IMG/VR virus record: IMGVR_UViG_2850790056_000003
DNA length: 16,924 bases
Source: a virus
Lineage: Duplodnaviria; Heunggongvirae; Uroviricota; Caudoviricetes
Reading direction: 5' to 3' (one strand)
Made by a program: the position numbers. Below are positions 12,001 to 14,254 of the stretch, one piece after another. The stretch's first letter is position 1. Each line of letters starts with the position of its first letter.

Positions 12001-14254
12001 TGCTAAGGAGCGCGAACAGAATCGTATCCCTGTTGAAATTGCTGCGGGCCAGCAAATAACCCTCAGTCCCGGCGAGCACAGCGAACTTATCCGTGCCATA
12101 ATAGAGGACTTCGCCCCACGTTTTGCTCCGGGTAGCGTGCTGGTCTATGCTGGCGACACTGGCGAAAAGTGGGGCTACTTCGACGCTCCACTGCTGGCCG
12201 GGCTAGGTGTTGATGTGGATTCACACGGTAAAATGCCAGATGTGGTGCTACATTTTACTGCGAAAAACTGGCTGCTGCTGGTTGAGTCTGTCACCAGTCA
12301 TGGACCGGTTGATGGGAAGCGGCATGCTGAGCTTGCCAGGCTGTTTGCCGGATCAACAGCCGGACTTGTCTATGTGACCGCTTTTCCAAATCGCTCCATC
12401 ATGGGACGATATCTTGGTGAAATCGCATGGGAAACAGAGGTATGGGTGGCTGATGCACCTTCTCATCTTATTCACTTCAACGGAGTGCGATTTCTTGGCC
12501 CCGACTCTACTGAATGAGTACAGGACCAGATAAATAGCCCGGCCCATGCGCCGGGTTTTTCTTTGCATATCCCCTCCTGTTATCTGTCCCCTTAAAAAAT
12601 AAATCACTTTAAAAATCAGTTAAGTAATAATTTTTCGCCATAAAAAGCACCGGCGGCATTTACATGAAAATCACCAAAAGTTATATTTATTTCAAGCCAG
12701 AAACATCGCGCCCTTACACAGGGCTACATAAATCAGTCGTACGGCGCGACTTAACCCGCCGCAAAATGCTCTTTAACAACCTGGAGCTTTACAGTGTCAA
12801 TGACCTGTTTAGACCCTTACACGTAAACGTGCTGTATCATCGGGTACGATCCGGTCGATGAGAGAGTATCCCCGCGCGAGAGCGAGAACGGCGTGAGAAC
12901 GGGCAACACTGGCAGGAAGTTGGCGCTGACCAATACAGGGAATGTTTTGGGGTGTGGTGAAGGGTTCATGGACGGGAATATGTCGCACGTAAAGCGGCGA
13001 GGCCCGAGGGACTATTGCTGAAGATAAGTAGGCCGAATCGGGTCGAAATGGGTCTCCCACCTGCCACATCGCCAAAGCATTTCCGAGAAAGGACGGTATT
13101 GACTGCGTGTGATGTCGGGGCTATATTGGAAGAACACCTCATAAAACGGGTGTCGGGATTGCTACCCCGCTGACAATCGAGGCGATACAGACGCGCCAGC
13201 GTCTTTTTTTGTATCGACATACACGCACATCTTATCAATGGTGGGCTGTATGGGGCCGACTTCAGTCGGGCTGGTTCCCTTGATTGCCAGTTGTAGCAAC
13301 CCTGTACAGTCCACCGCCAGCGAGCTTGCTACCTCCTGCGGTGGTTACCAATCACCAATCACCAATCACCAATCACCAATCACCAATCACCAATCACCAA
13401 TCACCAATCACCAATCACCAATCACCAATCACCAATCAAGGAGGCTGCCATTATGGCTACTATCCCTGCCCTTTCTCAACCTGAAATCACCATTTCCAAT
13501 GGCCGCGCTGTTACTACGTCCTTTGCCGTTGCCGAATATTTTTGCAAGCGACACGATAACGTATTACGTGCCATTGCAAATATTGAATGCTCAGCGAAAT
13601 TTAACACCCTCAATTTTGAGGACGTTACCTACACCGACGCCAAAGGCGAACAACGCCCAATGTACCAAATCACCAAAAACGGATTCGTCTTCCTGGTGAT
13701 GGGATTCACTGGTAAAAAAGCCGCTGCTTTCAAAGAAGCCTACATCGCTGAGTTCGATCGCATGGAAAAACAACTATGGGAACAAAAACAACTGGCCCTG
13801 TCTTCTCCTGCGATGAACATCAACTACCCCCCTCGTGGTTCTCAGATAACCATCCCTACGCCACGATGAACTATGTTGATCGCAAGGTTATCAGCCTTGA
13901 TGCTTCCGTGCTCTTCGATATGCCAAGCCCAACTATGCGCATCCTCAATGAGCTACACAGCAAAGGCTATAACGTTGACGCCGCTGTCGCCGAATTTAAC
14001 GCCTTCAAGCATCTGACGGAAGAAATGCGCCGTAAATTGCTGGACATTTCCCGCACATCGGAAAAATCTTCCCGCTTTGGTTTCAACGTAAATCTTTAAT
14101 TAACCCCATCCCCGACCACATATCGGGGATTAAATTAAATATCTGGATTAATTAACCGGAGGATTTGTCATGCTCAAACCTCACTACGGAACCGCATTAG
14201 TTTCTCGCGAGGACGTTAAACCCGGCACAGCAATTCTTTACAATGAAGTGGTCA

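Follow-up and report, generated by a model that had tools for sequence, protein, structure and literature searches.

In the immI region of phages P1 and P7, the c4 antisense RNA has been described together with three sets of sequence words, a1b1, a'b' and a2b2 (Citron and Schuster 1990, in PMC7313666). The C4 words a' and b' pair with a2 and b2 at the ribosome-binding site of the gene that encodes the antirepressor or of the one before it, the target words occur a second time, as a1b1, upstream of c4, and the a/b words vary between phages and set specificity; the Rfam families concerned are RF01695 and RF03163. In Gifsy-1, IsrK is a small RNA of about 77 nt that has its own promoter, forms three hairpins and ends in a leaky intrinsic terminator, and it is followed 20-45 nt on by a C4-family region (orf45/STnc1160) and then by an antirepressor-type gene. 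Hershko-Shalev et al. (2016, PMC4825925) reported that transcription past the terminator into the gene downstream belongs to the mechanism, that IsrK supplied in trans raises translation about 100-fold, and that constitutive STnc1160 left IsrK toxicity unreduced; Hfq binding, partial read-through and trans-activation are known only from these Gifsy-1 experiments. The same authors likened IsrK/STnc1160 to SeqA/CI and called IsrK a structural homologue of SeqA. In P4 immunity (CI RNA, seqA, seqC), a processed antisense RNA is likewise flanked on both sides by complementary sequences on the same transcript, and CI acts by premature transcription termination.

The locus described here lies in a 16,924-nt stretch of Caudoviricetes DNA (IMG/VR record IMGVR_UViG_2850790056_000003, hereafter the window; Table 1). 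The original prediction had noted a promoter followed by two short hairpins and AGACGC-gcca-GCGTCT with a T-run, all of which are present where it placed them, and had offered three readings of the unit, namely a PL analogue, an HK022 put-type antiterminator RNA, or a free-standing sRNA. The last of these is essentially right. A covariance search against Rfam, as had been proposed, returned a full-length match to isrK (RF01394) at 13134-13209 on the plus strand (61.8 bits, with the curated gathering score at 50; the E-value is 2e-11 and the match covers the entire model, positions 1-77 of 77), and the unit is, judged by its sequence, a copy of the phage small RNA IsrK and an ordinary member of that known family. 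In the predicted fold, two hairpins at the 5' end are followed by a single-stranded spacer and then by a Rho-independent terminator. The short RNA on its own only modestly exceeds shuffled sequences (z = -1.6), and it is the match to the covariance model, not the fold z-score, that makes it significant. The terminator is probably leaky, by analogy with Gifsy-1, and its 6-bp stem is short, which is consistent with partial read-through. The claim that the unit holds no ORF stands insofar as none is contained within it, although on both strands there are mechanical ORFs that overlap it. In relatives, IsrK is covered by small 'hypothetical protein' annotations on the minus strand, which look spurious. 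At permissive E-values, the only credible Rfam matches around IsrK were isrK and C4, those to bxd_1 and Acido-1 being chance, and a tRNA/tmRNA scan found none. The c4-a1b1 model (RF03163) had no match in 12500-13500 even at E <= 10; in the subfamily of Gifsy-1 and P27 it does find a match, which overlaps isrK.

Table 1. Features of the IsrK locus and its surroundings in the window (positions of the whole stretch)
Feature	Position	Strand	Basis or remark
Candidate PL, TTTACA-N17-TATATT	12659..12687	+	aligns with phi80 promoter-like site
Operator-like ATCACCAAAAGTTAT	12670-12684	+	in spacer of candidate PL
PL leader homologous to phi80 nutL/N leader	12767..13083	+	94.6% identity to M11919 ('nutL regulatory signal')
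rrn-type boxA TGCTCTTTAACAA	12767-12779	+	in PL leader
Conserved structured element, ~140 nt	12946-13077	+	in PL leader; fold z = -3.1
P-isrK, predicted sigma-70-type promoter	13099..13127	+	10/12 to consensus; conserved register
IsrK sRNA gene	13134..13210	+	76-77 nt; Rfam RF01394 and predicted fold
IsrK hairpin 1	13134-13153	+	predicted fold
IsrK hairpin 2	13154-13169	+	predicted fold
IsrK a1 word GGGATTGCTAC	13155..13165	+	loop of hairpin 2; complementary to C4 a'; alignments
IsrK b1 word CTGACAATCGAGG	13170..13182	+	spacer; complementary to C4 b' loop; near copy of b2
IsrK intrinsic terminator, AGACGC-GCCA-GCGTCT + T-run	13189..13210	+	stem-loop 13189-13204; fold and Rfam match
C4 antisense RNA	13234..13321	+	Rfam RF01695, 76.4 bits (gathering score 45)
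C4 b' loop	13278-13290	+	part of C4
C4 a'	13293-13302	+	part of C4
a2 word TTGCTAC	13326..13332	+	Rha leader; identical to a1
Heptanucleotide array (ACCAATC)x13, perfect, 91 nt	13347..13437	+	TRF: 13.1 copies, 100% matches
b2 word CAATCAAGG	13433..13444	+	C4 b' loop target; overlaps Rha Shine-Dalgarno AAGGAGG (13438-13444)
Rha-family (Phage_pRha) gene	13453..14099	+	Pfam PF09669, 3.2e-32; PHROG regulator and anti-repressor families

The promoter TTGACT-N17-TATATT had been described as about as strong as sequence allows. The two hexamers (-35 at 13099-13104, -10 at 13122-13127) and the 17-nt spacer are as placed, but P-isrK has no extended -10 beside its partial consensus match, and the 3.5 kb examined contain two further sites of equal score. 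The number of promoter-like sites in this 3.5 kb (3) is no higher than in shuffled sequence (3.4 +/- 1.6), so the consensus match alone is not evidence for P-isrK. What argues for it is conservation across homologous modules: 81 of 89 distinct upstream sequences carry a -35 TTGnnn and a -10 TAnnnT in the same register, unlike the DNA farther upstream, which is unrelated. Position 1 of the isrK model falls 7 nt past the -10, and the predicted promoter would thus provide IsrK with a start of its own at the first hairpin.

The C4 RNA starts 24 nt downstream of the IsrK unit, and two words within IsrK, upstream of C4, are complementary to its a' and b'. A second pair lies in the Rha leader, where a2 is displayed in a predicted hairpin made with the C4 3' tail and b2 (13433-13441 in the immI comparison) covers the ribosome-binding site (b2:b' duplex, -21.7 kcal/mol). 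Duplex energy, fold and covariation all bear out that the IsrK middle is complementary to the RNA downstream of it, both in cis and in trans. The IsrK-middle:C4 duplex of the window has an energy of -34.3 kcal/mol; over 100 distinct combinations, cognate IsrK/C4 duplexes average -33.9 kcal/mol as against -23.4 kcal/mol for non-cognate ones. The read-through RNA (13134-13345) is predicted to fold with IsrK a1b1 paired to C4 b'a' (MFE -92.9 kcal/mol, z = -5.5), a cis fold resembling the inactive 'structure A' of Gifsy-1 (PMC4825925). Two sequence patterns run on IMG/VR caught the Gifsy/P27 subfamily and the subfamily of the window, respectively. Among 84 distinct modules, the a1:a' helix is 99.5% paired, with both sides changed in 5 of 10 pairs, both sides have changed in 10 of the 12 b1:b' pairs, and the a2:a' helix is 93.9% paired (both sides changed in 5 of 7). 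Counted over the whole IsrK:C4 pairing, 84% of cells are paired and covariation is 0.488, compared with 0.150 in shuffles, none of 500 of which reached the observed value, and with 0.08-0.14 when the partners are slid; the leader:C4 pairing gives 82% and 0.427 (0.153 in shuffles). The window and phage ArgO145 are ~95% identical, yet all three a sites differ between them: a1 reads GCTA in the window and CTCA in ArgO145, a' TAGC and TGAG, and a2 GCTA and CTCA. Since a1/b1, a'/b' and a2/b2 change together, IsrK is the a1b1 partner of a P1/P7-type immI switch.

IsrK thus lies directly upstream of a C4-like region and an antirepressor-type gene, in the same order as in Gifsy-1, where a C4 match falls on orf45/STnc1160 and corresponds to the C4 of the window. 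The two loci also share the general form of IsrK set out above (with a predicted promoter and, by analogy, a leaky terminator in the window), the short distance to C4, and complementarity of the IsrK middle to the C4-family region over about 30 nt. They differ in several respects. The IsrK of the window belongs to a different subfamily, with CACCUCAUAAAACGGGUG rather than GCCAGCAAAAUCUGGC as hairpin 1; its downstream gene encodes a pRha protein unrelated to the ORF6N protein AnrP, with no sequence homology found between the two; its cassette takes the place of N in the early-left operon and does not follow antQ; and its orf45-like ORF differs in length and extends over the Rha start. As compared with P1/P7 immI, the a1b1 words form a separate sRNA that has a terminator and a predicted promoter of its own, RF03163 misses the subfamily of the window, and no conserved icd-like coupled ORF was found among the modules. 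An ORF opens at a conserved ATG within the C4 5' stem; in some modules it stops 10-104 nt short of the gene and in others it has no such end. It has 37 codons in ArgO145 and 153 in the window, where it runs across the Rha start out of frame. Translational coupling through orf45, a step in the Gifsy-1 model, does not look conserved among the modules.

The IsrK-C4 tandem was found in the type locus, that of Salmonella Gifsy-1, and in ArgO145, P88, SfV, the P1-like phage JL22 and P27. The cassette is portable: it lies downstream of Q in Gifsy-1, within the nin region of P27 and behind pacB in a P1-like phage, and it also occurs in a P2-like phage. E. coli genomes hold up to 6 matches to the region 12500-14200. 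In GenBank and RefSeq records of related Stx phages, IsrK and C4 are unmarked at this locus, and a literature search for IsrK in Stx phages found no paper describing it there. Some of these Stx phage records place spurious small proteins over IsrK/C4.

The copy of the cassette in the window is decaying. Alignment with the intact 215-aa gene of ArgO145 places a 1-nt deletion near 13833 that splits Rha into 13453-13869 and 13776-14099, and IS3-family and IS1 elements replace the operon downstream; the putative antirepressor role of Rha is itself only annotated. Promoter, IsrK, C4, a2 and b2 are intact in sequence, while the output is degraded. Between a2 and b2 is inserted the heptanucleotide array, which we describe as hypervariable: a contig 99.76% identical to the window over 9.2 kb, the one true relative, has 11 copies. 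The array is unique to the window among 207 unique modules, the complete E. coli genomes sampled lack it, and at least 3 copies were absent from 185,579 species-representative genomes; a 2-copy occurrence in an Ignavibacteriales MAG is an unrelated chance match.

Taken together, these data make it highly probable that the isrK gene, with its predicted promoter and leaky terminator, is the first element of an IsrK-C4-antirepressor-leader RNA cassette. Taking P1/P7 immI as the paradigm, together with the experiments on Gifsy-1, we infer the following steps, with promoter activity, termination and C4 processing likewise predicted. Most transcripts from P-isrK would stop at the terminator and yield short IsrK, and a minority would read through into C4 and the Rha message. 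C4 sequences would pair with a2/b2 or a1/b1, so that Rha translation stays off; free short IsrK would compete for a'/b' and turn it on. Some IsrK-containing RNA may also start at PL, because the cassette lies downstream of the probable PL.

Two other views accept the identity of the RNA and bear on its action. According to one, IsrK acts mainly in cis: C4 would pair with nascent a1/b1 and set passage through the terminator, so that C4/Rha is autoregulated in the manner of P4 seqA. The SeqA/CI analogy was raised by the Gifsy-1 authors themselves, a1b1 does pair with a'b' in cis in the predicted read-through fold, and in E. coli genomes C4 homologues also adjoin ash-family genes typical of P4-like satellites. 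P4 CI works through premature termination, however, and the only alternative structure found within IsrK is a weak 4-bp candidate anti-terminator pairing (GGCG 13181-13184 with CGCC 13194-13197) that could compete with the terminator stem but is no better than shuffles (z = -0.4). The strong trans-activation by Gifsy-1 IsrK and the lack of effect of constitutive STnc1160 on toxicity (PMC4825925) also speak against it, and we regard a mainly cis-acting IsrK as unlikely, although cis and trans modes are not mutually exclusive. It is somewhat less doubtful, yet still improbable in our judgement, that the cassette in this prophage is a non-functional relic that now regulates nothing. The frameshift in Rha and the IS elements in place of the downstream operon would fit a relic, as would an a2-b2 spacing of 132 nt where 72 of 76 measurable modules have 46-60 nt. 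The RNA elements nevertheless remain mutually complementary and could act in trans on other prophages that share the a/b words, and a relic would concern present function and not identity.

If the promoter at 13099 were a PL analogue, the unit would be a leader whose terminator needs an antitermination factor; it does lie between the immunity region (cI, R-M) and the early-left genes of relatives (Rha, kil, gamL, recT, exo), and transcription of those genes from upstream must pass the IsrK terminator. The alignment with phi80, whose counterpart TTGACC-N17-TTTAAT lies upstream of nutL, instead puts PL 440 nt farther upstream, followed by boxA and the lambda/phi80-type PL-nutL-N leader. The operator-like ATHAC-N5-GTDAT of the cI-cro region occurs exactly only in the spacer of this candidate and twice in the cI-cro region, a weak test because these very sites had supplied the motif; the 13099 promoter shows neither operator overlap nor positional homology to PL, and no convincing operator common to it and the cI-cro region was found (best 12/17). 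The phi80 homology stops ~15 nt short of the P-isrK -35, at the point where N would start; P-isrK occupies the place of the N ribosome-binding site and the IsrK-C4-Rha cassette the N position. Searches of the window and of ArgO145 1-50 kb with N of the phi80 and 933W types gave only chance matches, which is weak negative evidence because N proteins diverge quickly. We infer that the real PL would be the upstream candidate and not the 13099 promoter, and with the same promoter-sRNA-terminator unit at non-PL positions in other phages a PL analogue at 13099 is very improbable. More improbable still is a cis-acting antiterminator of the HK022 put type, which would modify RNA polymerase without protein factors. 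It shares with the unit a general likeness, two stem-loops just past a promoter, but comparison with the whole HK022 genome gave only chance 10-12-mers (E >= 0.5), the unit carries its own terminator and scores as an isrK family member, and its variable words covary with C4 rather than with a partner expected for a polymerase-binding RNA. Since Rfam matched no family in the HK022 immunity region, no put model was applicable to the window.

The assignment of the unit to IsrK, as the first element of the RNA cassette, is mainly a matter of annotation, given that the family was already known. The three-way covariation goes further, in that it clearly shows IsrK to be the arm of the classical P1/P7 C4 switch that carries a1b1, whereas reviews still treat the two as separate systems. 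A wider scenario, which we consider rather improbable in its entirety, is that in the non-lambdoid Stx2a phages (ArgO145, TL-2011c, PA8 and the O104:H4 outbreak phage) IsrK-C4-Rha has replaced N at its ribosome-binding site, with feedback through PL leakage and a heptamer switch. If so, N would have been swapped while PL, boxA and the structured N leader were left intact, and the cI-controlled early-left operon would begin with an antirepressor-like gene gated by RNA. Leakage from PL would add both IsrK-containing RNA and Rha message, and this positive feedback might account for the unstable lysogeny that has been reported in this lineage; the hypermutable heptamer tract between a2 and b2 (13 versus 11 copies) would serve as a contingency switch in the sub-lineage of the window. 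As the cassette stands in the N position of clinically important Shiga-toxin phages, an RNA switch acting on a gene of antirepressor type could influence toxin-phage induction.

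From sequence homology, the unit at 13099-13210, which the original prediction suggested could be a PL analogue with a terminator in its leader, an antiterminator RNA of the HK022 put type, or a free-standing small RNA, is an isrK gene with a C4 antisense RNA directly 3' of it, as both elements match Rfam models above their gathering scores. An Rfam scan of the whole window at curated thresholds, a covariance search that had been proposed as a check on the unit, yielded three matches (isrK, C4, and STnc100; see table), and the isrK match across the full model bears out the small RNA reading. 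Downstream of C4, a Shine-Dalgarno sequence precedes the ATG that opens a Phage_pRha gene (Rha), which PHROGs places among transcriptional regulators and anti-repressors. The window shares this element order with the type isrK locus of the Salmonella prophage Gifsy-1, where isrK (79.3 bits) and C4 (69 bits) are followed by the antirepressor-like gene anrP; the C4 match there falls in the region called orf45/STnc1160 by the authors who described that locus, and RF03163, the Rfam motif "a1, b1 targets of C4", overlaps isrK. The tandem was also found in five further phages (Stx phage ArgO145, P2-like P88, SfV, P1-like JL22, and Stx phage P27). As the gene under control varies by phage (pRha, ORF6N, ORF6N+P22_AR_C, ORF6N+KilAC, or a "derepression" protein), the RNA pair is a portable regulatory cassette. 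None of the related Stx phage and E. coli records inspected annotates IsrK; small minus-strand "hypothetical proteins" that lie over IsrK and C4 in RefSeq/GenBank (4665-4835 in the related sequence L002, 15763-15921 in the ArgO145 record) are probably annotation artefacts on structured-RNA genes.

Features of the window in and around the isrK-C4-Rha cassette
Feature	Position	Strand	Details
STnc100 (RF02076)	4167-4372	-	full-length match, 159.6 bits; in rightward operon of prophage
Restriction-modification pair	10044-12517		BsuBI/PstI type; between cI and PL, position of lambda rexAB
Bidirectional terminator	12536-12557		3' of restriction-modification pair
Candidate PL	12659-12687		TTTACA-N17-TATATT, from alignment with phi80; operator-like site 12670-12684 in spacer
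rrn-type boxA	12767-12779		TGCTCTTTAACAA; start of phi80-like leader segment
P-isrK	13099-13127	+	-35 TTGACT 13099-13104, 17-nt spacer, -10 TATATT 13122-13127; read from sequence
isrK (RF01394)	13134-13209	+	61.8 bits (gathering score 50), E = 2e-11, full model
IsrK hairpin 1	13134-13153	+	starts 7 nt past -10
IsrK hairpin 2	13154-13169	+	followed by single-stranded stretch
IsrK terminator	13189-13204	+	AGACGC-GCCA-GCGTCT, T-run to 13210
C4 antisense RNA (RF01695)	13234-13321	+	76.4 bits (gathering score 45)
a words			a1 TTGCTAC (IsrK hairpin 2 loop); a' GTAGCAA (C4 3' strand); a2 TTGCTAC (just past C4); window sequences
b words			b1 CAATCGAGG (IsrK spacer); b' CCTTGATTG (C4 loop); b2 CAATCAAGGAGG (Rha ribosome-binding region)
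Heptamer array	13347-13437		(ACCAATC)x13, perfect; in Rha leader between C4 targets a2 and b2
Rha	13453-14099		Phage_pRha gene
IS3-family transposase	14252-15091	-	
IS1 insA/insB	15690-16387	+	

Promoter hexamers, hairpins, and the terminal stem-loop with its T-run are all present where the original prediction placed them. While the promoter had been described as near-consensus, and its hexamers are as given, by consensus alone it is not exceptional: it scores 10/12, without an extended -10, two further sites within the surrounding 3.5 kb equal this score, and three promoter-like sites were observed in that region versus 3.4 expected from shuffles. The short RNA on its own folds only slightly better than shuffles (z = -1.6). 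We thus judged the unit to be real because of homology and conservation, not consensus. The promoter is itself a component of the cassette: of 89 distinct upstream sequences, 81 have the motifs -35 TTGnnn and -10 TAnnnT in a common register, while DNA further upstream is unconserved.

The a and b words of IsrK are complementary to words in C4 and recur as copies in the Rha leader, with b2 positioned over the Shine-Dalgarno sequence of Rha. In a seven-phage alignment, the three a sites change in concert, as do the three b sites, and the window and ArgO145, which are ~95% identical, carry compensating differences at all three a sites (GCTA/TAGC/GCTA versus CTCA/TGAG/CTCA). Two exact-pattern scans of IMG/VR identified 207 unique modules with 100 distinct IsrK/C4 combinations, among which the mean duplex energy was -33.9 kcal/mol for cognate and -23.4 kcal/mol for non-cognate pairs (-34.3 kcal/mol for the window's own pair); the cognate partner ranked first, alone or in a tie, in 59 of the 100. 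When 84 modules were aligned, IsrK a1b1 and C4 a'b' were 84% paired, with a covariation of 0.488 as compared to 0.150 in shuffles (0/500 reached the observed value) and 0.08-0.14 with partner columns slid; leader a2b2 and C4 were 82% paired, with a covariation of 0.427 versus 0.153 in shuffles. The predicted fold of the read-through RNA 13134-13345, in which IsrK a1b1 pairs in cis with C4 b'a' (MFE -92.9 kcal/mol, z = -5.5), reproduces "structure A", which was demonstrated in Gifsy-1 and is translationally silent. The a and b words assort independently in the 84-module alignment (the window's TTGCTAC is joined to three other b words in modules L159, L234, and L237), which suggests combinatorial specificity groups (cf. 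P1/P7 heteroimmunity).

The reading of P-isrK as PL fails on homology, as the phi80 promoter region aligns instead with the candidate PL 440 nt upstream. Between the restriction gene and the IsrK promoter lie 580 nt that contain a phi80-like N leader: 12767-13083 is 94.6% identical to a phi80 segment that is annotated as "nutL regulatory signal" and ends 36 nt 5' of the phi80 N gene, and Stx2 phage 86 likewise has 12946-13077 immediately 5' of N. This homology breaks off ~15 nt upstream of the P-isrK -35, and searches of the window and of 50 kb of ArgO145 gave no N homologue. Together, the phi80 homology and the absence of an N match indicate that 12659-12687 is probably the true PL of the window and that the IsrK-C4-Rha cassette occupies the N position. 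An operator-like ATHAC-N5-GTDAT occurs without mismatch only at two sites in the cI-cro region and once within the 12659-12687 spacer, a check that is circular since the motif was derived from those very sites. The reading as a put-type antiterminator RNA is likewise unsupported, as similarity to HK022 consists only of chance 10-12-mers and a terminator is part of the unit itself. A ~140-nt element (12940-13085), conserved immediately 5' of N in phi80 and in Stx phages of the 933W type, is kept in the window without N; it has a predicted closed multi-branch fold (MFE -56.9 kcal/mol, z = -3.1) and matched no Rfam family. A 2023 paper reported that the related Stx prophages PA2/PA8 encode an rRNA methyltransferase (PMC10810198), a possible counterpart of the gene in the restriction-modification pair.

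Family membership, tandem architecture, three-way complementarity with covariation, the location of b2 over the Shine-Dalgarno sequence, and the conserved promoter register are established by this analysis. In Gifsy-1, a short RNA and, via partial read-through, a long, translationally silent message both originate from the isrK promoter, and IsrK acts in trans by pairing downstream of its own gene, increasing translation of the antirepressor-like gene >100-fold; the authors likened IsrK to P4 SeqA, and STnc1160 is a product of the read-through transcript that is complementary to IsrK (PMC4825925). In P1/P7, the antirepressor is repressed via pairing of C4 with a2/b2 (summarised in PMC7313666). 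At the window locus, IsrK may thus act as an a1b1 decoy, or anti-antisense partner, of C4, and the amount of terminated IsrK relative to the C4 made by read-through would set the level of Rha translation. The orf45 coupling step of Gifsy-1 should not be transferred to this locus, because the end of the predicted ORF that begins at a conserved ATG within the stem of C4 varies widely in position from module to module.

In the window, the RNA elements of the cassette are intact and its output is degraded. A 1-nt deletion within a run of C near 13833 splits Rha and leaves the N-terminal pRha domain intact; the annotation of a related E. coli genome lists its Rha copy as a pseudogene containing an internal stop. 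IS elements replace the kil-gam-recT-exo genes of relatives (kil-gamL-recT-exo after Rha in ArgO145), and the prophage is defective. The heptamer array lengthens the interval between C4 and the start codon to 132 nt, versus 46-60 nt in 72 of 76 measurable modules. Eleven copies are present in IMG/VR contig L247, which is 99.76% identical to the window over 9.2 kb; the unexpanded state is seen in all other modules and in every complete E. coli genome sampled that has the module, and at least three copies were found in none of the representative genomes searched. The array originated where ATTAATC became ACCAATC, a change that also removed the stop codon of the upstream ORF, which starts in C4. 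Changes in copy number alter the frame of this ORF relative to Rha: with 13 copies the two are out of frame, and with 11 they form an in-frame fusion.

The element itself is already known, as it belongs to a curated RNA family whose mechanism has been published, and Rfam (RF03163) and the Gifsy-1 paper (PMC4825925) both imply that it pairs with C4; co-occurrence of IsrK and C4 has also been noted in APSE phages. A literature search found no published description of IsrK in Stx phages. In the O104:H4 outbreak phage, the C4-Rha part of the cassette is present at 97.9% and, in phage record P13374, the promoter-IsrK segment at ~97%. The more interesting by-product is the context, namely the apparent replacement of N in the group of Stx2a phages to which the O104:H4 outbreak phage belongs, along with the hypervariable repeat.
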